Shown here in pieces: positions 627-27,884 of a stretch of DNA of 27,884 bases. Position 1 is the first letter of the stretch. Each line of letters opens with the position of its first letter. Position numbers and translations under genes: made by a program. A model generated the notes under the pieces. It worked only from the letters and a program-made list of their open reading frames with translations, was not told the DNA's origin and ran no database searches. Source of the stretch: a virus (taxonomy: Duplodnaviria; Caudoviricetes); the IMG/VR virus record IMGVR_UViG_3300042451_001385, positions 1 to 27,884 of that record; one strand, given 5' to 3'.

Positions 627-1898
627 ATGGGATTACAAAATGCAAGTGTTTCAAATGCTCTGAATAATAGATTTGGTACTAAAGATACTACTTTATCTAG
701 ATTTGGTGTAGTTTATTCTGTAATATTAGATGAAACCCATCCGAAAATAAAACAATCACCAAATGATTCATTTGATTCAAGAATAGTTGGATGTGTTGAA
801 TTTAGATATCAAAATGATTTCACTACAAATGATAGAGATTTACCATTAGCATATCCATTTGATAAAAATTTTGTAAACCTACCAACAAAAAATGAAGTTG
901 TAGAAATAATTCAATCAAACGCTGGGCCTATATTGTATAAAAGAATAGGTGCAGAACCATCACCAAATATAAATGCACAATCTACTTTAATAAGTAGTGT
1001 ATTTGCACCAGGTTCTACACAATCTCCAGAGAAAACTACATCAGATTATTCCAAAGTTTCACAAACAGGTATAACAAAAACAAACACATCTGGTAATTTA
1101 AAATATGATGGATATGGAAAATACTTTAAAGCTGAAAAAACTCATAAATTAAAACTATATGAAGGTGATACGTTAGTACAGAGTAGATTTGGACAATCAA
1201 TAAGATTTTCGGCATATAATAATGAAAAAAATATATATTCACCTGTTATTCTTATTAGAAATTCACAAAATGAAATATCTAAAAAGCAAGATATATCAAC
1301 AATTGTTGAGGAAGATATAAATAGAGATGGTAGTACAATAGCAATAACATCAAATCAATATCAATTACCATTCCAACCGGGAACAGTATCCGATAAAGGT
1401 TCATCTGATTTTGAAACAAAACCAAATACATTCAAATCATATCCATCCAAACTAATAGGAGACCAGGTATTAATTAATTCTGGTAGAATAATATTATCAG
1501 CAAGAAATGCTGAAATGATATTCTACTCAAAAAAAAATTATGGGTTTATTTCAGATGGTGCAATGTCAATAGATAATAAGCTTGGTATAAACGTAAATGT
1601 AAACGATACAATTGATGTAAAAACAAATGATAGGGATATAAGACTTGTTACTGGTACTGGTAGAATATATTTGGGTAGATATGGAGCTTCTGGTGATGCT
1701 GGTGCCCCTATACAAAAAATGGTAATGGGTGGTGAGTTGGTTAAAATCCTAAAAGATTTAATAGATGCTGTAACTAAACAACAATATGCAACCCCTTGTG
1801 GACCTACTGCATTAGGACCAACTAATTTAGCAGATTTTAATTTAATAAAAACAAAATTAAATCAAATTCTATCAAACAACAATTATTTAAGTAGATAA
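627..1898 (+). CDS. Baseplate central spike/hub protein (gp5/VgrG-like, no lysozyme domain evident)
   Basis: OB-fold-like N-terminus (GVVYSVIL...GCVEFR...AYP...LPTKNEVVEI), YEGDTLVQSRFGQSIRF and GDQVLINSGRIILSAR beta-repeat segments, C-terminal TPCGPT; lies upstream of gp25/gp6. Confidence 0.65.
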   Translation: MGLQNASVSNALNNRFGTKDTTLSRFGVVYSVILDETHPKIKQSPNDSFDSRIVGCVEFRYQNDFTTNDRDLPLAYPFDKNFVNLPTKNEVVEIIQSNAGPILYKRIGAEPSPNINAQSTLISSVFAPGSTQSPEKTTSDYSKVSQTGITKTNTSGNLKYDGYGKYFKAEKTHKLKLYEGDTLVQSRFGQSIRFSAYNNEKNIYSPVILIRNSQNEISKKQDISTIVEEDINRDGSTIAITSNQYQLPFQPGTVSDKGSSDFETKPNTFKSYPSKLIGDQVLINSGRIILSARNAEMIFYSKKNYGFISDGAMSIDNKLGINVNVNDTIDVKTNDRDIRLVTGTGRIYLGRYGASGDAGAPIQKMVMGGELVKILKDLIDAVTKQQYATPCGPTALGPTNLADFNLIKTKLNQILSNNNYLSR

Positions 1899-3331
1899 TG
1901 TGGGCAATCTATAAAGTAAACATGCTAAGAAAGATGTCCAGTGGGGCATTTGCAAAAGATATAGATGGTTTTGCAATATCATTTGCCGATGAATTTGATG
2001 CGTGTATAAAAAGAGGAGGAGACTTAATCAACGGATGTAATGTAGTAAATGGTAATAAACAAGCTTTAATTTTAGGAATAAAGGATGCATTAAAAAAAGG
2101 ACAAAGTGCTGGTATTGGTAATTTTAATTTGTTAAATGAATTAGGACCTGCAATAGTTGCATATTGGTCTGGTGCAACATTATCACCATATCCAAATCCT
2201 TTGGTAAAACCGGGAGGTTGGCAAAGTACACCACCTGCAATTGGTACTGTTTTAAATTTAGGACCAGAACCAATACAAACCGCCGCATCTGCTGCAAAAA
2301 TAACTGCTGAAAAAACTGCAACCAAAATAGCAATAGATGAATTAAAAAAACAAAAGATAAATATTCCTCCTTTGGGTGAAGTTAATATATACGATACTGT
2401 TGAAAAGATATTAGCTAAAAAAATAAATGACCCACAAATATTAGCACATCCCGCAATATACCCAGCCGTACTATTGGTTAAGTTAGCAAGAGAAACTAAA
2501 ATACCTTCTCCAAATTTAGCGTTAAAACCTGGTAATTTTATAAAATTTCCACCACTTCCAGATAGAAAAAAATTAATAGAGGAAGCAAAGAAAAAATTAG
2601 AGGAAGAAGCTGAAAAACAAATAAAAGAGCAAATCAAAAAACAAATAATAGAACCTGTAAAGGAAGCAATACTTACGCCAATAGAACAGGCAATAGAACA
2701 GGCAATAGCAATAGCTAATACAGTTAGACCTTTACCAACCAAAGCTCAAATAAAAAAATATGTTAAGGATACGTTTGAAGGTATAATACCTGATTTACAA
2801 TTACCTGGTATAACAATACCAAAAATACCAACTAAAGCAGAAATTGAAAAAATTGTAAATGATATAATAGCAGGATATATACCAAATATACCAAATCTAA
2901 AATTACCAAAAATACCAACCAAAGAGGAAATAAAAGCTATGGTATATGAGATGATTAAAGATAAAATCCCACAAATACCAAATTTTAATATAGTCCTTCC
3001 TAGTTTGTATTTTAAACCAAGTTCAAACATTTTAATAAATCCGTTGGTTAATTATTGTAAAACGCAAATGCTAACAACTGGTGGTATAATAAATGTATTA
3101 GCACAATATCCACCACCAGCAATACCAGCACCAGCTATTATTAAATGGGATGGATATAGAGTTCCTGATGGACCTCCTGTACCTGATATACCAATACCAC
3201 CGGCATTTCCATCAAATATACCATTACCAGATACTTCAAAATTAATAACAGAATTACCTAAAATTAAATTAGAAGTACCTAAATTTGAAGTACCTTCGTT
3301 GGGTAGTGTGGCATCTATAATAACAATATAA
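1898..3331 (+). CDS. Proline-rich putative virion protein with internal repeats
   Basis: 477 aa; TAATG overlap with the spike gene; three PTK(A/E)xI repeats and a Pro-rich C-terminus. Confidence 0.75.
   Translation: MWAIYKVNMLRKMSSGAFAKDIDGFAISFADEFDACIKRGGDLINGCNVVNGNKQALILGIKDALKKGQSAGIGNFNLLNELGPAIVAYWSGATLSPYPNPLVKPGGWQSTPPAIGTVLNLGPEPIQTAASAAKITAEKTATKIAIDELKKQKINIPPLGEVNIYDTVEKILAKKINDPQILAHPAIYPAVLLVKLARETKIPSPNLALKPGNFIKFPPLPDRKKLIEEAKKKLEEEAEKQIKEQIKKQIIEPVKEAILTPIEQAIEQAIAIANTVRPLPTKAQIKKYVKDTFEGIIPDLQLPGITIPKIPTKAEIEKIVNDIIAGYIPNIPNLKLPKIPTKEEIKAMVYEMIKDKIPQIPNFNIVLPSLYFKPSSNILINPLVNYCKTQMLTTGGIINVLAQYPPPAIPAPAIIKWDGYRVPDGPPVPDIPIPPAFPSNIPLPDTSKLITELPKIKLEVPKFEVPSLGSVASIITI
2679..2714 (+). 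repeat. In-frame tandem repeat (CAATAGAACAGG x2 followed by CAATAG x2)
   Basis: Seen directly; encodes IEQA-IEQA-IA-IA. Confidence 0.85.
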
Positions 3332-8465: not shown

Positions 8466-10022
8466 ATGGCATTACAAAATTTTAAAGATATTATTAACAA
8501 TAAGGCGTATCGTATTCAATCGAAGGATAGAGAAATTTTTGAAAAAGGAAATTTACAATCTTTCTTTGGGTTTAGTGATAAGGACGTTATTGAGTTTATA
8601 GTATATGATGCTAATGATAATCAACTACCTCAAAAAGACTGGGGAATAGTTAGATATATACCAATGACAGATGAAAATATAGGAGATTATTTTTTAATAG
8701 CAGACGGTACTATTTTACAAGCTTACAACTTTCCAAATGAATACTTTATTGATATTGAAAGACTCTTAAATGAAGCTGGTTATGAAAATGGTATATTTAA
8801 AACACAAATAAATTTACTTAATAATAGAGTAGGTAGTTCTCAAAAGTTTGATAAATTATGGATATCGGAAGTATCTCCATCTAGAACTGAAATAAGAGTG
8901 TTTCCATTAAAAAGAAAGGAAACGGAAGGAACTGATTTGTTTGAAAGATTTAATATATTTGTTAAAGATGGTGAATTTAGAGAAGATACAATCAACTCTG
9001 CATTATCTATTATAGAAAAGGTATCACCGCAACAAGTTGCAAGTGCACTATCTACCAAATATGGAAAAAATTGGGTTGATAAATTAAGGAGTGAATACAA
9101 CATTACAAATTTAGAATTATTTTTAAATAACGTACAAAGTAAATTTGTACAAGCATCCTTATATGAATTTACAAATAGGATTTCAGACCCATTAGATTTG
9201 AATTATGGTAAACCAAAAAGAACAAAACCAAAGTTGGATTTATCAAAAACAAATATTAAACAAAAATGTGTAGACCTTTATATAAGAGCTTTGGATTTTT
9301 ATTTATCAAGACCAGCTTTTGTACAAAATAGTAGTTTTGATTTGGATACCGATTCAAGTAAAGATATAGTTGGACAAGTATTACAAAGAACACAATCAGA
9401 TTCACTTATAGATACTACTTCTCCTACAGTTAAAGTAACAAAAGTTACAAAACCAAATATAAGTAGTTCTGAAATACAACTTAAATCTGAAATAATTAAA
9501 GAATTACCACCACCACCTCCACCTACACCGGTAGTTGGCCCACCACCACCATTTAACCCTGAAATAGGAGGAGGAAATAATTCTGGAAAAAATTATTACC
9601 AAATTAGAGTAACAAGAATGGGAATTCCTGCTACACTTGAACAAAGTGCTTTTACATTTATAAATTCAAATGGGCAGCAAGAAACTATACAATATGATGG
9701 ATATGGTTTGGTTGGTGTATATTGTATGTTAGATGGTTCTTGGCAAAATGGGTCATATTATTTATATGAACTAACTCAAGTTGGTTTATGTGGACCTGCA
9801 AACAATAATAAAGATTTGATAGATGTTATTGATTACAAAACACCACAAGATACAATACAAAAACCAACGGAGTTTATAACACCAGATGGATTACCAAATG
9901 TAAGTATTGTAAATGATACTAAATATGTGGACACGGTTGTAAATAATGATAATTACAATAGAAATGACTTTATGAATGATAGAGCAATGGCTGATACACC
10001 TAATAGAATTAACGAATTATAA
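8466..10022 (+). CDS. Putative baseplate/tail structural protein with a polyproline linker and accessory C-terminal domain
   Basis: 518 aa; LWISEVSPSRTEIR core, then a PPPPPPTPVVGPPPP linker and a small two-Cys domain. Confidence 0.7.
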   Translation: MALQNFKDIINNKAYRIQSKDREIFEKGNLQSFFGFSDKDVIEFIVYDANDNQLPQKDWGIVRYIPMTDENIGDYFLIADGTILQAYNFPNEYFIDIERLLNEAGYENGIFKTQINLLNNRVGSSQKFDKLWISEVSPSRTEIRVFPLKRKETEGTDLFERFNIFVKDGEFREDTINSALSIIEKVSPQQVASALSTKYGKNWVDKLRSEYNITNLELFLNNVQSKFVQASLYEFTNRISDPLDLNYGKPKRTKPKLDLSKTNIKQKCVDLYIRALDFYLSRPAFVQNSSFDLDTDSSKDIVGQVLQRTQSDSLIDTTSPTVKVTKVTKPNISSSEIQLKSEIIKELPPPPPPTPVVGPPPPFNPEIGGGNNSGKNYYQIRVTRMGIPATLEQSAFTFINSNGQQETIQYDGYGLVGVYCMLDGSWQNGSYYLYELTQVGLCGPANNNKDLIDVIDYKTPQDTIQKPTEFITPDGLPNVSIVNDTKYVDTVVNNDNYNRNDFMNDRAMADTPNRINEL

Positions 10023-19201: not shown

Positions 19202-20140
19202 ATGCTATCTGGTAGAAACAAATTACAAATAATCACAATATTAGATTCTACACTAGGTGTGGGTTCATCCCTTAAGGGAAATGAACAGGCCCATCATTGT
19301 CCTTTTTGTAATCACCACAAAAAGAAACTACAAATCAATTTAGATACTCAAAGATGGCATTGTTGGGTGTGTGACTCAAAGGGTAGAAGTATTTATTCAC
19401 TACTCCGCAAACTCAATGTAGATATTAGAGACCTGAATAAGGTTAGAGATGTATATGGTGATGAGCCTGAATACGATTCTAAAGAGGAGTATGTAGCTAA
19501 GTTACAATTACCAAAAGAATTCAAACAATTATATTTCAAACCAACTGGGTCATTTAATCCATCATATAATCAGGCCATTCATTACCTAAGTAAAAGAGGT
19601 ATTGCGAAAGCAGATATTGTAAAACATAATATTGGATATTGTGAAGATGGATTATATGGTGGTAGAGTAATCATTCCATCTTATGATGATGGTGGAGAAC
19701 TTAATTACTTTGTAGCTCGTTCTTTTTATGAAGATGAACCATACAAATATAAGAATCCGCCAATTAGTAGAGATGTAATTGTATTTGAGAACCAAATTAA
19801 TTGGAATGAACCGATTACGTTAGTGGAAGGAGTATTCGATTCATTTTCAGTAAAGAGAAATGTAATTCCATTGTTAGGTAAGTTTCTACTTAGCAAACTC
19901 AAAAACAAAATTATGGAAATGGGTGTTAAAGAGGTAACGATTATGTTAGACTCAGATGCCGTAGATGATTCAACTAAACATACTGAATGGTTTATAAATA
20001 ATGGAATAAAAGTGCGTAATATAATACCAACTGATAAAGATGCTGGTGAAATGGGATTTAAAAAAGTAAACGAACTCCTAAAGGGAGCAAAACAAACTGG
20101 ATGGGATGACTTAGTTCTATCCAAACTAAATAATATATGA
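19202..20140 (+). CDS. dnaG: DNA primase (CHC2 zinc finger + TOPRIM)
   Basis: CPFC...HCWVC zinc finger; GRVIIP, YFVARS, KYKNP; TOPRIM LVEGVFD and LDSDA, KDAGE. Confidence 0.92.
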   Translation: MLSGRNKLQIITILDSTLGVGSSLKGNEQAHHCPFCNHHKKKLQINLDTQRWHCWVCDSKGRSIYSLLRKLNVDIRDLNKVRDVYGDEPEYDSKEEYVAKLQLPKEFKQLYFKPTGSFNPSYNQAIHYLSKRGIAKADIVKHNIGYCEDGLYGGRVIIPSYDDGGELNYFVARSFYEDEPYKYKNPPISRDVIVFENQINWNEPITLVEGVFDSFSVKRNVIPLLGKFLLSKLKNKIMEMGVKEVTIMLDSDAVDDSTKHTEWFINNGIKVRNIIPTDKDAGEMGFKKVNELLKGAKQTGWDDLVLSKLNNI

Positions 20141-23100
20141 GGTTAAAGAGAATTTATCACATTGCGGATATACACATTCGTAATATAAAAAGACACAAAG
20201 AGTTTAGAGAAGTATTTTACTCAATGTTTGAAGAAATACAAAAAAGAGGAACGGAAGATTCTATTATCTACTTAGCTGGTGATATCGCTCATGCTAAATT
20301 GGAAATGAGTCCTGAATTGGTAAGTGAGATTAGCTGGTTGTTTACGGAATGTAACAAACTATGTCCTACAATTGTAATCGCTGGTAATCACGATTGTAAT
20401 ATGAATAATTCGGACAGAATGGATGTACTTACCCCAATCGTTGATGCATTGAAATTACCAAACCTAACTTATTTAAGAGATACTCAAGTTTATGGTATTG
20501 GTGGGGTGGACTTTGCAGTATTCAGTATATTTGATAACAAAGATAATTGGCCAAAAGCTAATACACTATTTGCAAACAAAAAGATTGCACTATTTCACGG
20601 ACCTGTTGATAACTCCACAACCGATGTAGGGTATGTGGTTAGTAGTAGACACTTTACAACTGATATATTTGATGGATATGATTTGGCCCTGTTAGGAGAT
20701 ATCCACAAAAGACAAGAGATGATATCACCAAGCGGATGTAAGGTGGTATATGCCGGTTCTTTGGTACAACAAAACTTCGGTGAAACCCTTGACAAGCACG
20801 GATTCTTAGTTTGGGATTTAGATACAATGACCTATGAGGAAGTTGATATCCAAAACGATTACGGATACTATACTTTAGATGTTGATGGTGGTATTGTGCC
20901 GGATGTAACTGATATGCCGTTATACCCTCGTTTAAGAGTAAGGATAACTAATACGGATACCGCAGATACTAAAAGGATGATGGCTGATATTACGGCAAAG
21001 TATGGCGTAGAAGATTTTACAATCATTAGAACGGATTCATTCAATACCAAGAAAACCAACGATAGAGAAGCAAGGTTGGAAGTAGATAGTGTGGCTGATA
21101 TAAACCATCAAAACTCTTTAATAGGGGAGTATGTGGAACGTATGATGCCATTTGTAACGAAGGAGGACTTGGCTGGAATAGAGAAAATAAATCGTGACAT
21201 TAATAGTAGAGTGCAACCATCAGAACAACAAAGGAATATAAGCTGGAAACCTGTAAGATTTGAATTCTCTAATATGTTCAGTTATGGAGAGGACAATGTT
21301 ATTAAGTTTGATAAGATAAACGGATTGATGGGATTATTTGCACCAAACGCACAGGGTAAATCATCCCTATTTGATGCAATATCATTTTGCTTGTTTGATA
21401 AATGTAGTAGGGCTTATAAGGCAGCTGCAATTATGAATAATAGGAAGCAAGATTTCCATTGCCAATTGGATTTCACTATTGATGGTGTAATGTATCATAT
21501 CCGTAGGGAAGGTAAAACTATTAATAAGGGAAGAAACGTAAAAGTGGATGTGGAATTTTGGAAAGAGGGGGATACCGGTAGGGAATCACTTAACGGAACG
21601 GAACGTAGGGATACAAATCAAGTCATTGAAGGATATGTAGGCCGTTATGAGGATTTCGTAATGACAGCATTGAGTTTGCAAGGAAACAATGCACTATTCA
21701 TTGATAAATCACAATCTGAAAGGAAAGATTTGTTGGCTCAATTTATGGGATTGGACATGTTTGATAAGCTGTATGAAACTGCTACCAATGATATTAAGGA
21801 TGTGAACGCACTTATCAGAAATTTTAGAAAGACCGACTTCACTTCCGAATTAGCCCAAAAAGAAACCGACTTGAATGCAAAGAAAGTTGAATATGGTGAA
21901 TTGGATTCTGAGAAGTTAGAATTAGAAAATCGTAAGGGTGAGATGGAAGAACAAATTGTAACTCTATCTCAACAAATCATTCCAATTCAAGGTAACTTAG
22001 ATATTGATGAATTAAATCGTAAATTAAAAAAGATTGAGGGTGAATTAACAACTTGGGGAGATACTAAGTTTGATAAAACCCAAAAACTTACGGAAGTAAA
22101 AGAATTGGTTAGAGAAGCTAAGGAAATGGTTGATTCTAAAGTTACCATAAACGGAATTAGTATAGAAGTTGTATATTCAAATTACCAACGAGAACAAAAA
22201 GCTTTAATTGAAGCAGAAAAAACTTATTCAATAGTAAAGTCACAATTAGATTCCGCCAAAGAAAAGATTAATCATTTGGATAAGCATGAATATGACCCAA
22301 ATTGTAAATTTTGTTGCGATAATGAATTTGTTAAAGATGCAATGAGAGCAAAAGAAGCATTGCCTGAATTGGAAGCGTTTGTTAAAAATGCAACTATACA
22401 ATGTACGGGTATTCAACAAACTTTAGATTCTTGGGAAGGTGTAGAAGAACAATTCAAACAATGGAAAGAATATACCGATGAATACAAAAGATTAATTAAT
22501 GTTACAGAAAGATTGGAAGGTGATATTAGAACTGCAGATTCTAAAATTGAATTATCACAAACTCAAAAGGAAACTGTAAACGCTGATATTCAAAGATACA
22601 ATGATAACGAAGAAACAATTGTAAAGAATCAAGCATTAGATATCCAAATACAAAATGTTCGTAGATTGAAGCTAGGTGTGGAAAGACAAATTTCGGATGT
22701 GAACAAACTTATGTTGAAATTGATGTCAGAAGTAGGTGCAACAAAAACTTTTATAGATAATATGAAAGCTAAGATGGAGGAAGTAAAAGAATTGGAAACT
22801 AAAAATCAATTATATACATTCTACTTAGATGCAGTTAAAAAAGATGGTGTACCATACGAATTAATATCCAAAGCACTTCCAGCAATTGAAAACGAAGTGA
22901 ACAACATATTAGGACAGGTAGTAGATTTCTCAATAGCAATGGATACCGATGGAAAGAACATTAACGCTAGAATCGTTTATGAGGACCAGGAGTGGGCTTT
23001 AGAAATGTGTAGTGGTATGGAGAAGTTCATATCGGGATTAGCGATTAGAGTGGCTCTAATTAACATTTGCAACCTACCTAGACCTAACTTCTTAGTAATC

Positions 23101-23280
23101 GATGAAGGGTTTGGTACATTAGATGCAGATAACCTATCATCTTTATTTATGATGATGCAATATCTTAAAACTCAATTCGATTTCATTTGGGTAATTTCTC
23201 ACTTAGAACAAATGAGAGATATAGTAGATGGGCTTATCGAAATTAAGAAAATAGATGGGTTTTCTAAGATTAATTTTTAA
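20137..23280 (+). CDS. Fused Mre11/SbcD nuclease - Rad50/SbcC ATPase (T4 gp47-gp46-like) recombination exonuclease
   Basis: Metallophosphoesterase motifs ADIH, AGD, GNHD, FHG, GDIH; Walker A APNAQGKSS, Q-loop, coiled coil with CKFC zinc hook, CSGMEK signature, Walker B/D-loop IDEGFGTLD, ISH; ATGA overlap with the primase gene. Confidence 0.93.
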   Translation: MRLKRIYHIADIHIRNIKRHKEFREVFYSMFEEIQKRGTEDSIIYLAGDIAHAKLEMSPELVSEISWLFTECNKLCPTIVIAGNHDCNMNNSDRMDVLTPIVDALKLPNLTYLRDTQVYGIGGVDFAVFSIFDNKDNWPKANTLFANKKIALFHGPVDNSTTDVGYVVSSRHFTTDIFDGYDLALLGDIHKRQEMISPSGCKVVYAGSLVQQNFGETLDKHGFLVWDLDTMTYEEVDIQNDYGYYTLDVDGGIVPDVTDMPLYPRLRVRITNTDTADTKRMMADITAKYGVEDFTIIRTDSFNTKKTNDREARLEVDSVADINHQNSLIGEYVERMMPFVTKEDLAGIEKINRDINSRVQPSEQQRNISWKPVRFEFSNMFSYGEDNVIKFDKINGLMGLFAPNAQGKSSLFDAISFCLFDKCSRAYKAAAIMNNRKQDFHCQLDFTIDGVMYHIRREGKTINKGRNVKVDVEFWKEGDTGRESLNGTERRDTNQVIEGYVGRYEDFVMTALSLQGNNALFIDKSQSERKDLLAQFMGLDMFDKLYETATNDIKDVNALIRNFRKTDFTSELAQKETDLNAKKVEYGELDSEKLELENRKGEMEEQIVTLSQQIIPIQGNLDIDELNRKLKKIEGELTTWGDTKFDKTQKLTEVKELVREAKEMVDSKVTINGISIEVVYSNYQREQKALIEAEKTYSIVKSQLDSAKEKINHLDKHEYDPNCKFCCDNEFVKDAMRAKEALPELEAFVKNATIQCTGIQQTLDSWEGVEEQFKQWKEYTDEYKRLINVTERLEGDIRTADSKIELSQTQKETVNADIQRYNDNEETIVKNQALDIQIQNVRRLKLGVERQISDVNKLMLKLMSEVGATKTFIDNMKAKMEEVKELETKNQLYTFYLDAVKKDGVPYELISKALPAIENEVNNILGQVVDFSIAMDTDGKNINARIVYEDQEWALEMCSGMEKFISGLAIRVALINICNLPRPNFLVIDEGFGTLDADNLSSLFMMMQYLKTQFDFIWVISHLEQMRDIVDGLIEIKKIDGFSKINF

Positions 23281-23443
23281 TAGTTGATAATGTATTATTA
23301 GGTGTGGTCTTTTTTAAAGACTGCACCTTTTCTTTTATAAGAGTTTCTACTAATCCATTTATCTTATACCCCTTTTCTTTACAAAATTCTTTTAATGCTT
23401 GATGTACATCGGCATCAATTTGTATCATTGCGTATTTTTTCAT
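23270..23443 (-). CDS. Small ribbon-helix-helix (CopG/Arc-like) DNA-binding protein, 57 aa
   Basis: Manual translation: MKKYAMIQIDADVHQALKEFCKEKGYKINGLVETLIKEKVQSLKKTTPNNTLSTIKN*; strand-helix-G-helix pattern typical of RHH. Below the ORF-track length cut-off. Confidence 0.8.
   Translation of the reverse strand: MKKYAMIQIDADVHQALKEFCKEKGYKINGLVETLIKEKVQSLKKTTPNNTLSTIKN
23300..23337 (+). terminator. Intrinsic terminator for the primase/Mre11-Rad50 transcript
   Basis: AGGTGTGGTCTTT-TTT-AAAGACTGCACCT forms a 13-bp stem with two G-U pairs, followed by TTTCTTTT; about 20 nt after the stop at 23280. Confidence 0.7.
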
Positions 23444-23482: not shown

Positions 23483-23491
23483 ATATTTATA
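23483..23491 (+). promoter_or_regulatory. ATATTTATA motif, putative late promoter
   Basis: Recurrent motif, 23 nt before ATG at 23506. Confidence 0.6.
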
Positions 23492-23505: not shown

Positions 23506-26070
23506 ATGGAAGAAAAATATATTTCATTTGATGGTTGGTGGGGTGGTTACTCAAATATAAGAATGTCATATGAGATGATTGCGGCTATAAGCGTAATTAC
23601 CAACAGAACTATAATACTACCACCAAAACTTTATTGTTTATTCTTATCACAACATAATGATAAATCTACATTTTTTGATATGTGGAAAACATTAGATATT
23701 GAAGCATTTAAAAGAGAATTCAAATGTATTCATTATGAAGAAGTACCAGAGTATGCTGTATTGGAAAATAATACACAATATTTTTCTGGAATTGATAAAA
23801 TTGCTAAAATAATTTTATTTGATAGTGATTATAATGATTGGGGAGTTCAACAAGGAATACAAGATAATCAATTAATTGCTTGTAACGTATTAGATAATGA
23901 TGATTACACTTCATTTTCAAATGGAAGAACTTTAATAGATTTAAATTGTGATGACAAATTTATACATTTTCCAAGAAATTTATTTGGACATTTTTATTAT
24001 CATATATACGGAAATACTGCTACGCAAAGGAATATAATAAAAGAAAAAATAAAAAAAGGTGTAACATACAAAAAAACCTATTTTGAGATGACTGATGTAG
24101 TAAAAAATAAAATAGGAGAATACAACAGTATTCATATTAGAAGAAACGATTTTTTACAAACAAGAGAATATACAGCAAAACCGCAGCTAGAGAAATTGTT
24201 AGATGATATTAAAGATAGAATTGATACAAATATACCACTATACATAGCTACAGATGAAAATGATAAATCTTTATTTGAATTTTTAAAAGAACATTACACA
24301 ATATATTTCTTAGATGATTTTTTTATAGATTTACAAAATTATGAAAAATTAATGGTTGACCAAATAATATGTTCTAAATCTAAAATATTTTTAGGAAGTA
24401 AATTCTCAACATTTTCTGATTACATAAACATATTAAGAGGATATTCTAATAAACTTGATTTTCATAGAGAAGGCACTAATTTTAAATTACCAAAATTAAA
24501 CTACGATAGGTTTCCTTGGGAAGTTGAATCTTATAGTTGGGATAAGATTTGGGATTTTTGCTGGAAGTATGAGAGAAATTATTTTAATTTAGGATTCTTT
24601 GGTTCACATAATTCAGCTATGGCAATATCTTATAAAGGTGATGTATTAGAAGTTGTTGAATTAGAAAGATGGGTTAACAAAAAGAATGCAGCTTTTTATT
24701 ATCATTTTCCAATAGATAATCCCGATGATGTTGCAAAAAATATTTACGAATATTTTAAAAATAAATATGGTGCATATTATTATGATAACGTTATTTGGAA
24801 TTCAAGTAAAACTGCACATTTACAATTTCCTGCTAAAAATTATGAATTCAAACCACATCACTACGCGCATGTATGTAATGCTATGTATCAATCACCTTCT
24901 AAAAAATCATTAAATATTTCATTTGATGGTGGTAGTGATGAGGGTACATTCAATATTTATTTAGGTGAAAGAGGTAAAGAACCTGAAAAGATTTTTACAT
25001 CTTCAAAAGACTTGGCAGTTTGTTATCAAACAATAGCACATTATTTAAGTTCAATAAAAAGAGAAGATAATTGGTGGATAGGTAATTTAGTTTATGCTGG
25101 AAAACTTATGGGATTATCATCATATGGAAATAATACGGCATTATTGGTTAGTAAGATGGTTGAATTTTATGAAGGCCAAGAAACAGATGATGTTAATAAT
25201 GCACATTATAGATTTCAAAAAATATTTGGATTTACAAATGAAACAAGGTTAACGGGTAATTTTGAAAAAGATTTAGCAAGAGTAAATCAATTTGTTTTTG
25301 AAAAAACGTTTAAAAAAATAGTAGAACCATTCATTGAAAAATATAAAGATAGGGAATTGCAATTTAGTGGAGGTGGTGCTATGAATATAATAAATAATAG
25401 TATATACGATGCATTTGTATCACCAAATCCAGACGATAGGGGTATTGCATTAGGGCTTGTTTTGAGTAAAATAAAAACAGGAAACATCATAGATTCTACA
25501 TATTTGGGTTCTGAACCATATGATAGTTTGCCCGATTATTTTGATTTAAATATAGAAGAAATTGTAACAGATTTAATAAATGGTAAAATTATAGGAATCA
25601 TTCAGGGTAATAGTGAGCATGGCGCTCGTTCTTTAGGTAATCGAAGTATAATATGTATGCCATCGGTTGGCATGAAAGAAAAATTAAATTCAGAAGTAAA
25701 GCATAGGGAAATGTTTAGACCTTTTGCACCTGTTGTTAGATTAGAAGATGCTAGTGAGTTTTTTGAATTTGGTAATCATACTAGATGGATGACTCATAAT
25801 TCTATTGTAAAAGAAAAGTACAAAAGTAAAATACCAGCAATAACACATATAGATGGTACAGCACGATTGCAAACTGTAACTAAACATCAAAATGAATTAA
25901 TATATACACTATTGTCAAAGTTAGAAAATAGAGGACATATACCGGTATTATTGAATACATCATTCAATATTCAGGGTAATCCAATACTAAATAGATATGC
26001 CGATGCTATACTAATTAGAGATACTACTGGATTAGATAAGGTAATTACTGACAAATTTTTATTAAAATAA
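23506..26070 (+). CDS. Fusion of O-fucosyltransferase-like glycosyltransferase (N-terminal ~355 aa) and NodU/CmcH-family O-carbamoyltransferase
   Basis: GT half: GGYSN, NRTIILPP, SIHIRRNDF, LYIATDE, DQIICSKSKIFLGSKFSTFS. Carbamoyltransferase half: GSHNS, ELER, HHYAH, DGGSD, GKLMGLSSYG, SGGGAMN, EHGARSLGNRS, KHREMFRPFAP, HIDGTARLQTV, PVLLNTSFN. Confidence 0.88.
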   Translation: MEEKYISFDGWWGGYSNIRMSYEMIAAISVITNRTIILPPKLYCLFLSQHNDKSTFFDMWKTLDIEAFKREFKCIHYEEVPEYAVLENNTQYFSGIDKIAKIILFDSDYNDWGVQQGIQDNQLIACNVLDNDDYTSFSNGRTLIDLNCDDKFIHFPRNLFGHFYYHIYGNTATQRNIIKEKIKKGVTYKKTYFEMTDVVKNKIGEYNSIHIRRNDFLQTREYTAKPQLEKLLDDIKDRIDTNIPLYIATDENDKSLFEFLKEHYTIYFLDDFFIDLQNYEKLMVDQIICSKSKIFLGSKFSTFSDYINILRGYSNKLDFHREGTNFKLPKLNYDRFPWEVESYSWDKIWDFCWKYERNYFNLGFFGSHNSAMAISYKGDVLEVVELERWVNKKNAAFYYHFPIDNPDDVAKNIYEYFKNKYGAYYYDNVIWNSSKTAHLQFPAKNYEFKPHHYAHVCNAMYQSPSKKSLNISFDGGSDEGTFNIYLGERGKEPEKIFTSSKDLAVCYQTIAHYLSSIKREDNWWIGNLVYAGKLMGLSSYGNNTALLVSKMVEFYEGQETDDVNNAHYRFQKIFGFTNETRLTGNFEKDLARVNQFVFEKTFKKIVEPFIEKYKDRELQFSGGGAMNIINNSIYDAFVSPNPDDRGIALGLVLSKIKTGNIIDSTYLGSEPYDSLPDYFDLNIEEIVTDLINGKIIGIIQGNSEHGARSLGNRSIICMPSVGMKEKLNSEVKHREMFRPFAPVVRLEDASEFFEFGNHTRWMTHNSIVKEKYKSKIPAITHIDGTARLQTVTKHQNELIYTLLSKLENRGHIPVLLNTSFNIQGNPILNRYADAILIRDTTGLDKVITDKFLLK

Positions 26071-26073
26071 TAC

Positions 26074-26091
26074 TCTAAAGTATTCTTTAGA
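26074..26091. repeat. Inverted repeat TCTAAAG-TATT-CTTTAGA sharing its core with the 23443 repeats
   Basis: Seen directly, in the gap after the carbamoyltransferase gene. Confidence 0.55.
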
Positions 26092-26128
26092 ATTCTATAT
26101 AATCTAATTATGTAAATACATAATGCTA

Positions 26129-26137
26129 ATATTTATT
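26129..26137 (+). promoter_or_regulatory. ATATTTATT motif, putative late promoter
   Basis: Recurrent motif, 29 nt before ATG at 26158. Confidence 0.55.
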
Positions 26138-26157
26138 AAAGTAACAATTGAATATCA

Positions 26158-27884
26158 ATGGCAATAATAAAAAAATATCCCGAAACGCTATACCCAAATT
26201 TAACCACATATAATACGTTTGTGGTTGATAGTAATCCAAACTCTACATATTTTAGAATAACAGAGTTTAAAGAATCGTTTACGGGTGGTAAGAATGGATT
26301 TTTAATAGAAGGCTCTGAACATTTAAAAGAAACAACTGAAATAAAAATTGAAATTTTAGATGTAGAGGGTAATCCTATATATTGGGAACCTGGTAATGGT
26401 ATTCCTGAATATTATGAAGGATTATCTAAAGTAGTTGCTGTTTACATATATGAAGATACTCCGATTGGAGAAGCCAAAATTACAGTATTAGGGGAATTAA
26501 AAACTTATATAGATTCCGATGGAGTTGTAAGAGATGTACCCGATGAATGGAAAAGTGTTTACAACTTAAAGTGGGAAAGAGCATTTAAAGTAAATAGACT
26601 TTTATTGAACGAAGATAAAGTTCGTTTTTATAAAAGACCAGATGTTAGAATAGATGAATTAGTAAAACCATTATTTTCAGCAGCAACTCCTGTTGTAATT
26701 CAAACTGGTAGTGTTGATGGAACGGCGGTTGCACCACAATCTCAACAAAAACTAACAAATTATACTCTACCAACTTTTTATAGATTAACAATAAATGATA
26801 ATACAAATTGGACTGGTTCGATTGTTGGTACTAGATTATCATTTCCTGAATTAAATTGGAATCCTTTAGTAGAACAGGTAATTACAAATAAAGAATTGTT
26901 TGTATCTGACCCATATACAATAAATGGATATGTTGAAAATTTGGATAACGTTGGATACACAGCATCTTTTGCAGATACATCAAACACATCTAATTTAAAA
27001 ACAGCATTAACTGGTTCTTTTGCAAAAATTACTTTAAGCAATTTAGAAACTTTTGTTGGGGATGTTGTTTCTGTGGACATTTATAGAAAATCTTTATCTA
27101 AAATAGGAGATTATGAATTTGTTCAAAAAGTAATATTAGAATCAAATGAAATATTAAAAGATTATGATACTAAGGAAAAGAACGAAGAAGTATATGGTAT
27201 ATTATCAGCTGATATATTAAAAAATTATTGGGTAACATCATCAAATGCATTAACATCACAATTTAATCAAAATTATTTATATAACTCATCTAAGTTAGAT
27301 ACATCTGGTACTAAAAACTATTTTCATACAACACAATCATTTAGTTTAGTAGAGGGTGGTGAGTATTCGTTAAACTTTAACACTAGAAAATTAAATACTG
27401 GTGGCGAACTTAGAGTATTTATAAGTGGTTCTAAAGAAACTACATTTAATGGAAATTTAACAACTGCACAAGTTGAGCAAAATATTATTACTGTAGATGG
27501 TACATCAAATTCATATTTACAAAAAACATTAATTACCAAAAATTTTAAAGCTGATAATATATCTAATGCAAAATTATATTTTGAAGTAATTGGTAATGAT
27601 TGGTATGTGGCGGATATTAGTTTAAAATCATCACAAGAAAGTTCATTCTCACCAAACGAAGTAACATTCGTACAATCAGTACCAAGAAGTTTAATAGCTG
27701 AAACTTTTCAATATCTTTTCAAATTTTATGATGTAAATGGTAATTTAATACCAATATCAATTGATGAGAATCAGTTATCAAAAACATTTGATGGTGGTAA
27801 TATTCAAAGAATTGAAAAGAAGTTAGATTTAAATCCATCATCATTATATTTTCAATTTGATTCCGGTTCACAACCAGTACCACC
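26158..27884 (+). CDS. 5' part of a large virion structural protein (tail fibre/spike-like), runs off the window
   Basis: ATG at 26158 and no stop to the window end (575 codons): MAIIKKYPETLYPNL...SFTGGKNGFLIEGS...EIKIEILDVEGNPIY...; beta- and S/T-rich. Not in the ORF track. Confidence 0.85.
   Translation, partial: MAIIKKYPETLYPNLTTYNTFVVDSNPNSTYFRITEFKESFTGGKNGFLIEGSEHLKETTEIKIEILDVEGNPIYWEPGNGIPEYYEGLSKVVAVYIYEDTPIGEAKITVLGELKTYIDSDGVVRDVPDEWKSVYNLKWERAFKVNRLLLNEDKVRFYKRPDVRIDELVKPLFSAATPVVIQTGSVDGTAVAPQSQQKLTNYTLPTFYRLTINDNTNWTGSIVGTRLSFPELNWNPLVEQVITNKELFVSDPYTINGYVENLDNVGYTASFADTSNTSNLKTALTGSFAKITLSNLETFVGDVVSVDIYRKSLSKIGDYEFVQKVILESNEILKDYDTKEKNEEVYGILSADILKNYWVTSSNALTSQFNQNYLYNSSKLDTSGTKNYFHTTQSFSLVEGGEYSLNFNTRKLNTGGELRVFISGSKETTFNGNLTTAQVEQNIITVDGTSNSYLQKTLITKNFKADNISNAKLYFEVIGNDWYVADISLKSSQESSFSPNEVTFVQSVPRSLIAETFQYLFKFYDVNGNLIPISIDENQLSKTFDGGNIQRIEKKLDLNPSSLYFQFDSGSQPVP

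Follow-up and report, generated by a model that had tools for sequence, protein, structure and literature searches.

In plants, algae and protists, hydroxyproline is glycosylated after a prolyl 4-hydroxylase (P4H) has acted: the P4H is followed by HPAT/GT95, or the Skp1 hydroxylase PhyA by Gnt1/GT60. Few cases of virion glycosylation are known in phages, and genes of this kind are usually classed as host-directed auxiliary genes or as DNA modifiers. Mycobacteriophage glycosyltransferases (GTs) modify virion proteins, with capsid and tail-tube C-termini as targets (Freeman et al. 2023, as cited in PMC12619734), and a phage carbamoyltransferase makes 5-carbamoyloxymethylcytosine (PMC8670742). 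Here we analyzed 27,884 nucleotides of a tailed phage (Caudoviricetes; IMG/VR record IMGVR_UViG_3300042451_001385), hereafter called the window. One open reading frame (ORF) in it, at 23506-26070 on the plus strand (854 amino acids, ATG start), is a POFUT2-like GT fused to a TobZ/NodU-type carbamoyltransferase. Comparison with related loci suggests, with a probability of roughly 0.6, that this fusion attaches a predicted carbamoylated sugar to Pro/Thr-repeat proteins of the phage itself, probable components of the virion. This reading draws on the domains, their intact motifs, the coupling of the two halves across phage groups, and, in this phage family, their joint gain or loss with a P4H gene and two PTPAAP-repeat genes.

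A glycosyltransferase fused to a carbamoyltransferase

Pfam placed the O-FucT family (PF10250) at residues 11-313 (E 6e-18; 65.9 bits against a cut-off of 31.5), Carbam_trans_N at residues 428-650 and Carbam_trans_C (PF16861) at residues 689-853 (E 4e-53). Together with structure matches, motifs and invariant residues, these hits delimit a GT-B glycosyltransferase domain of residues 1-357 (23506..24576, plus strand) that ends in a Trp-rich C-terminal tail, a Kae1-like carbamoyltransferase domain of residues 358-660 (24577..25485, plus strand) and a YrdC-like domain of residues 661-854 (25486..26070, plus strand). The junction, which a sequence-only reading of the window had put near 24580, was placed at residue 358, about nucleotide 24577. 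The AlphaFold2 model of the fusion had a predicted local distance difference test score (pLDDT) of 91.4 and a predicted template modelling score (pTM) of 0.89. Residues 1-356 matched human POFUT2 best (Z 21.0, root-mean-square deviation (rmsd) 3.9, 290 residues aligned), followed by POFUT1 (Z 17.5), AtFUT1 (15.5) and NodZ (14.6). Residues 358/359-854 matched NovN, TobZ and VtdB (Z 32.7-34.3, rmsd 2.7-2.9, 466-474 residues aligned), and Foldseek concurred for both halves. The carbamoyltransferase is compact, with 497 residues against 571 for TobZ, yet both of its domains are kept; it scored 124 bits on the NodU equivalog NF041651, whose cut-off is 1000.

The GT half contains GGYSN (residue 13), HIRRNDF (210), YIATDE (246) and STFS (301), and DQIIC..FLG was read from the sequence at residues 285-297. 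Across 37 aligned sequences, G13, G14, N17, H210, R212, D215, F216, T249, D250, E251, S301 and T302 were invariant. The N-terminal loop reads WGGYSN and holds no acid; it may correspond to the position of the POFUT2 catalytic residue E54, an alignment by motif and not by residue-level superposition. The Kae1-like domain contains GSHNS (366), PHHYAH (450), FDGGSD (473), SGGGAMN (621) and PDDRG (642), with H368, H451, H452, H455, D474, D643 and D644 invariant in the same 37 sequences. In the YrdC-like domain we found EVKHRE (730), RWMTH (760), THIDGTAR (780) and LNTSFN (816), with K732, R734, M762, N817, T818 and S819 invariant. The catalytic and metal-binding residues of O-carbamoyltransferases (H368, H451/H455, D474, D643/D644, K732, M762 and S819) are kept in the alignment to VtdB, and we take them to be equivalent to the corresponding positions in TobZ numbering. 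The sequence-only reading had described a GT-B domain with GDP-fucose-transferase motifs joined to a complete Kae1-like plus YrdC-like carbamoyltransferase, and this description holds for both halves, with every quoted GT motif present.

The fusion is not an assembly artefact. Single contigs from the independent runs X4, X5 and X8 span the junction with zero differences, a variant contig from X20 also spans it (21 differences in 484 nucleotides), and 39 of the 120 matches listed are full-length homolog clusters with 99-100% coverage and 51-96% identity. Identity to the relative L081 is high across all three domains (275/357, 243/303 and 132/194), indicating that neither half is decaying. In a quick tree of 53 dereplicated rows, the compact carbamoyltransferases formed one clade apart from ordinary ones (Shimodaira-Hasegawa-like approximate likelihood ratio test, SH-aLRT, 99); the fused subclade had a support of 83 with P0041 separate, compatible with one or more fusion events. 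Elsewhere, the same clade is fused to GT60, to an HPAT-like domain (E 4e-4, below the cut-off) and to HtrL_YibB plus GT2. Such clade fusions (P0041, P0050, P0102 and P0104-P0116) comprise GT60-carbamoyltransferase and carbamoyltransferase-HtrL_YibB-GT2 proteins, one of them with a further inserted domain, and one four-domain protein combines HPAT-like, O-FucT, GT60 and carbamoyltransferase domains. The GT half also stands alone in 132 proteins.

Linked hydroxylases and proline-rich repeat proteins

We surveyed 83 fetched loci and found both halves in 69 of them. They are fused in 21 loci and adjacent in 26; in 13, the GT is one domain of a three-domain GT protein encoded immediately upstream of the carbamoyltransferase, and in nine cyanophage-like loci about 1.4 kb lies between the halves. 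The functional coupling of the two enzymes that the sequence-only reading had proposed is supported by these 69 loci. The carbamoyltransferase occurred without the GT half in 12 loci, of which three begin within the gene at a contig edge, seven carry a distant clade (27-29% identity), and two are L063 and the Xanthomonas phage XacN1; one further locus (L001) ends short of the second half. In XacN1 (L080, ORF330-334), a carbamoyltransferase of the clade lies with GT60 and HtrL_YibB genes, and no PF10250 gene was found near it. The fusion homolog P0146 has an intact GT and a decayed and truncated carbamoyltransferase without the catalytic His motifs and the YrdC domain. These two cases indicate that the GT and the carbamoyltransferase can separate. 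XacN1 also has proline repeats at several places in its genome, and three further cultured jumbo phages (hits H3-H5) match the carbamoyltransferase at an XacN1-like level.

A 2-oxoglutarate (2OG)-Fe(II) oxygenase was present in 66 of the 69 coupled loci, with a P4H-type domain linked to the GT in 48 and a second oxygenase domain in 64. GT60 and an epimerase were each found in 28 loci, and a Pro-rich repeat protein, defined by at least 12 prolines in 30 residues, in 46. When the loci were merged at 75% identity into 17 groups, the oxygenase was present in 15 groups, the P4H in 13, repeats in 11, and the epimerase and GT60 in seven each. A relative's P4H domain matched bacterial, human, viral and algal prolyl 4-hydroxylases, with E 1e-24 to a Bacillus P4H and 5e-20 to viral collagen P4H. 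The second oxygenase has a 2OG fold; the top Z values of its fold search were tied among 2OG oxygenases, and its sequence search against PDB returned nothing. In 25 of the 69 loci (L014, L018-L043), a third small protein of 177-183 amino acids follows the carbamoyltransferase and shows HxD...H motifs suggestive of a 2OG oxygenase, with no Pfam match.

The repeats are runs of PT, PA, PS and PV, and the 46 loci that carry them are among the 60 non-cyanophage loci. In some groups the repeats sit inside proteins that match a virion structural PHROG or the crAss muzzle C-terminal domain. Six groups showed no repeats; five of these are single loci of 4-11 kb, one of which (L034) has a repeat visible at the contig edge, and the sixth is the cyanophage group. 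Since 32 of the 60 loci showed no GT60 or HPAT-like match, it is probably the PF10250 domain that adds the first sugar of the glycan.

Within the window alone, the fusion gene looks isolated. The record G002 overlaps the window end with 99.7% identity over 3,467 nucleotides, and there the fusion is followed by a large gene (2486 amino acids), two PTPAAP-repeat proteins of 705 and 281 amino acids (39 and 18 P[TAS]P tripeptides, respectively) and a 185-amino-acid P4H (PF13640), after which come a GT4-methyltransferase fusion, an Aah/TibC heptosyltransferase and two RfaE halves. L081 (76% identity) carries the fusion, the large gene and a 784-amino-acid repeat protein, in the order of G002 as far as it reaches. 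In the fetched flanks of the other 23 relatives, which were found through the large gene and 15 of which reach at least one ORF beyond it, there was no fusion before the large gene, no P4H-profile match and no stretch with more than 7 prolines per 30 residues; about 10 of these relatives are near-identical, which leaves five or six lineages. In the three closest, L222, L224 and L244, neither site is occupied, and a small ORF and the GT4 gene come straight after the large gene; the complete relative G009 (202 kb) has no GT half and no four-proline repeat. The fusion, hydroxylase and repeat genes are thus present or absent together despite flanking opposite sides of a 7.5-kb gene, which is the strongest evidence for the repeat proteins as target. 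This joint presence or absence is a correlation, based on two carriers and a small number of lineages that lack the genes. Judged by their position, the repeat proteins are probably virion parts. Atlas matches for the 705-amino-acid protein scored below 0.9 and give no more than a lead to SprB-repeat proteins.

In the pathway that we propose, the hydroxylase would convert repeat prolines to hydroxyproline, and the N-domain would use a GDP-sugar to attach an L-sugar to this hydroxyproline or to a neighbouring Thr/Ser. That sugar would most likely be L-galactose where a GDP-mannose 3,5-epimerase (GME) is encoded, and possibly host L-fucose in this phage. The C-domain would form carbamoyl-AMP from carbamoyl phosphate and ATP, which is the TobZ mechanism, and carbamoylate a hydroxyl of the sugar before or after its transfer. 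The resulting stalks may be stiff, similar to extensins or mucins, and serve either to withstand proteases and glycosidases or to adjust adhesion. A wider proposal, which we consider doubtful, is that the genes form a portable cassette among unrelated aquatic phages, with the fusion as its minimal core, and build extensin-like virion stalks bearing carbamoyl-L-galactose on hydroxyproline. Bacteria would then harbour a protein glycosylation route of the plant type, which a new hydroxyproline L-galactosyltransferase would start and a carbamoyl cap like that of antibiotics would complete.

Several observations weigh against decoration of the repeat proteins. The surveyed loci are redundant and related, so that their counts overstate independence, and G002 is a very close strain that is not proven to be the same genome as the window. 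No P4H-type domain was found in 12 of the 60 non-cyanophage loci, and the near-complete record G005 (98%) has no PF13640 match. None of the nine cyanophage-like loci had repeats nearby; the Synechococcus phage S-SCSM1 has the pair, GME and oxygenases, and its one short repeat run lies in a baseplate spike 65 kb away. In the reverse direction, 80 of 121 viral loci with a PTPAPTPAP pattern were fetched with flanks; a module gene lay in the flank of only six (five contigs) and this carbamoyltransferase in none, a weak result indicating that repeats are not sufficient for the presence of the module. G009 and G010, which lack both the GT half and repeats, have three PF13640 genes each and an ordinary carbamoyltransferase, which in G009 has 565 amino acids (L245:9444-11141) and immediately precedes the row of baseplate genes. 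The slot of the fusion is taken by another PF13640 oxygenase in several relatives (L233:9014-9727), which marks the site as an exchange hotspot. Neither the 705- nor the 281-amino-acid repeat protein has a PHROG match, the substrate of the second oxygenase cannot be read from its fold, and five of the 32 GT60-less loci have another protein that looks GT-like by eye. On the sugar side, no epimerase gene was found in the roughly 50 kb readable for this phage, and one protein, P0215, joins part of the GT to a GDP-fucose-synthase (Fcl)-like piece, which points to fucose.

Acceptor and donor sugar

The sequence-only reading had proposed fucose transfer from GDP-fucose to virion proteins at (S/T)GS motifs, followed by carbamoylation. 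POFUTs do modify Ser/Thr, and the motif is enriched in virion-type proteins of this phage (19 copies in the large protein where 3.9 are expected, and 10 in a 1746-amino-acid protein where 1.5 are expected). It is at background, however, in most other module carriers, and it persists at 2.5-10.5 per 1000 amino acids in 22 of 23 fusion-less relatives (1.1 in one short locus). L222, L224 and L244 keep their (S/T)GS-rich proteins with the fusion, P4H and repeats all missing, so the motif is unlikely to be the target, and the complete G009 likewise keeps it without the GT half. This phage also has a separate Ser-type protein O-heptosyltransferase, Aah/TibC, with RfaE genes. We consider the (S/T)GS version highly improbable; Pro/Thr repeats and a prolyl hydroxylase are what track the gene. 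The broader claim that virion proteins are the most likely class of target is supported. The second glycosylation set of G002 (L084:6884-11322) consists of the GT4-methyltransferase fusion, Aah/TibC (283 bits, cut-off 200) and a split RfaE kinase and adenylyltransferase; the GT4-methyltransferase fusion and Aah/TibC are also present in L222, L224 and L244. Aah/TibC is, on sequence grounds, the better candidate for modifying (S/T)GS in the closest relatives; it was rejected as a family-wide (S/T)GS enzyme, being absent from G009, G010 and G011.

The frequent oxygenase beside the pair (66 of 69 loci) would also fit a carbamoyltransferase that caps hydroxyproline or another hydroxylated residue directly, with the GT acting independently on Thr/Ser and no carbamoyl-sugar being made. 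CmcH of cephamycin biosynthesis is a precedent for carbamoylation of an oxygenase-made hydroxyl, and P0146 and XacN1 show that the halves can part. The clade is nevertheless repeatedly fused to different glycosyltransferases, no oxygenase fusion of it occurs among the 120 matches listed, and TobZ, NovN and NodU act on sugars; direct capping is therefore unlikely. Modification of a host surface glycan (lipopolysaccharide, capsule, exopolysaccharide or glycoprotein), for instance in superinfection exclusion, would have NodZ and NodU, which act on an oligosaccharide, as its model. In S-SCSM1, moreover, the split pair belongs to a large cluster of sugar genes that has no repeat protein in its vicinity, and the O-fucosyltransferase of this phage was classed under cell wall synthesis and modification (PMC9602691). 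That assignment is annotation-based, and the word carbamoyl does not appear in the paper. Outside the cyanophages, the module is embedded among virion genes, with P4H and repeat proteins as neighbours that come and go together with it, which makes a host glycan an improbable target.

A hydroxymethyl base of DNA that is glycosylated and carbamoylated was the other alternative raised by the sequence-only reading. The 5-hydroxymethylcytosine carbamoyltransferase is a precedent, other phages use 2OG oxygenases and GTs in DNA modification, and the fusion gene comes after a primase and SbcCD. The published enzyme co-occurs with a thymidylate-synthase homolog (PMC8670742), whereas PF00303, the family covering dCMP hydroxymethylase, was absent from all five carrier records searched, namely G003 (complete), G005 (98%), S-SCSM1, G004 and G002, and the control matched in 10 of 14 genomes. 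The lack of such a homolog in three complete or near-complete carriers makes a DNA target very unlikely; for the window phage itself, part of the genome was covered. The linked oxygenase is also P4H-like, and no DNA methylase, TET or hydroxymethylase family appeared in Pfam scans of neighbour proteins (101 proteins, mostly cluster representatives, and 65 of 77 further ORFs of G003 and G005). A TET/JBP profile search matched none of the five carrier records, and its control gave no match either.

For decoration of the repeat proteins, the sugar itself may be L-galactose and not fucose, because the epimerase neighbouring the module in relatives is a GME. Outside cyanophages, each of the 21 epimerases next to the module was GME-like, with a match to Arabidopsis GME at E 6.5e-96. 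L-galactose has a primary 6-hydroxyl, missing in fucose, that is the position carbamoylated by TobZ and NodU on their sugars. GME is described as forming GDP-L-galactose together with by-products of L-gulose and D-altrose type, and GDP-L-galactose as being accepted by several fucosyltransferases (PMC8787198). Against L-galactose, the epimerase is nearby in only seven of the 17 groups, and cyanophages have both enzymes. We give L-galactose an even chance; L-fucose is possible, and a sugar other than these two is rather unlikely. The GDP-fucose donor named by the sequence-only reading is thus doubtful, with GME-like epimerases speaking against it and the Fcl-like piece of P0215 for it.

Genomic setting and comparison with known systems

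The window is an AT-rich piece (26-36% GC) of a large myovirus-like phage and encodes baseplate wedge genes, a primase and a fused SbcCD; a terminase and a T4-like portal were found in G002. SbcD and SbcC form one 1047-amino-acid ORF (20137-23280), and they are separate genes in L228 and L229. The stretch was present in 19 lake water metagenome runs at 0.74-1.00 of its words, three of which are possible sources. None of the runs listed with the stretch was an RNA run, X20 as RNA being only a guess. The nearest record, G001, covers the left part of the window only and had no match to the fusion. Two short metagenome-assembled genome contigs with phage-like neighbours from a GTDB scan were not accepted as host evidence.

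The promoter-like motif ATATTTAT lies at 23483..23490 (plus strand), 23 nucleotides before the ATG of the fusion. On the plus strand, seven of its eight copies stand 23-39 nucleotides before ORF starts (at 198, 3372, 15296, 17271, 18246, 23483 and 26129 of the window), the best result of 56 letter permutations; its total count is at chance (11 found against 11.3 expected). The upstream placement, though not the total count, fits the late-type motif that the sequence-only reading had seen before the fusion, and ATATTTAT is probably the late promoter of this phage family. A second AT-rich upstream block, TTCTTTAG...ATATTTAT (the latter at 26129), lies before the large gene at 26090..26157 (plus strand) and was delimited by DNA alignment with gene-less relatives. 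The fusion gene thus lies between two similar blocks where relatives without it have one, an arrangement that reads as an insertion between the blocks. The left border is marked by a divergent ORF of 57 amino acids (23270..23443, minus strand) that is conserved in relatives with and without the fusion and lies outside the module. This ORF (58 amino acids in L224) overlaps the SbcCD end and has the look, by eye, of a ribbon-helix-helix regulator. On the right, as the sequence-only reading had it, a large virion-type gene adjoins: the (S/T)GS-rich gene starts at 26158 (26158..27884 in the window, plus strand), and its C-terminus gave a weak Peptidase_S74 match (E 0.03, below the cut-off). Two mildly Pro-rich ORFs of the window (1898-3331 and 8466-10022; two and one P[TAS]P tripeptides, respectively) were not taken as targets.

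If the proposal is right, a module that hydroxylates, glycosylates and carbamoylates proteins of the phage itself is present in several groups of lake and marine phages. The modification would be new for proteins, bacteria would have a cytoplasmic route to hydroxyproline glycopeptides, and a testable function could be assigned to some 2OG-Fe(II) oxygenases, GDP-mannose epimerases and Nol-like carbamoyltransferases of phages. The system is simple to test, with one soluble enzyme, a 185-amino-acid hydroxylase and short repeat peptides.

No description of the fusion or the cassette was found in the searched literature (titles and abstract starts, with few subscription papers). Within the reach of these searches, each part has a precedent, and the fusion and the predicted carbamoylated hydroxyproline glycan of a phage have none. 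The 5-hydroxymethylcytosine carbamoyltransferase is phage-encoded and has the same Pfam pair; the thymidylate-synthase homolog with which it is reported to pair (PMC8670742) was found in none of the five carrier records. The closest split homologs are ORF113 (an O-fucosyltransferase; 36% identity in the GT) and ORF117 (a carbamoyltransferase) of S-SCSM1; among 50,697 records, no other cultured phage has the GT half. S-SCSM1 shares GME and 2OG oxygenases nearby with the module, but its halves are unfused, it has no adjacent repeat proteins, and its genes were published, by annotation, as host cell-wall genes (PMC9602691). Mycobacteriophage GTs likewise are phage-encoded and act on virion proteins; the passage describing them mentions no hydroxylase or carbamoyltransferase (PMC12619734).

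POFUT2 (GT68; PDB 4AP6, 5FOE), the best structural match of the GT half, belongs to the same PF10250 family and shares the conserved Arg, Asp and STFS nucleotide-sugar motifs. The phage-encoded enzyme differs from it in its 16-20% identity, the lack of a signal peptide, Gly/Asn in place of the acid in the N-terminal loop (E54 being mapped by motif), no EGF or TSR targets seen, and a donor that may be GDP-L-galactose. TobZ, NovN, VtdB, GdmN and NodU share the Kae1-like plus YrdC-like fold and the metal-binding His/Asp and the catalytic His, Lys and Met that are invariant here, whereas the phage enzyme is about 70 residues shorter, forms a separate phage clade, is fused to a GT and has a predicted protein-glycan acceptor. 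Hydroxyproline glycosylation in plants, algae and protists has in common with the phage loci a P4H (here also the PF13640 gene of G002), O-glycosyltransferases including GT60, and Pro/Thr/Ala/Ser dipeptide-repeat proteins, which none of the 23 module-free relatives has. We know of no carbamoyl cap in those pathways. The phage route would differ from them in being phage-encoded, probably cytoplasmic, and built around a PF10250 enzyme as its core GT.

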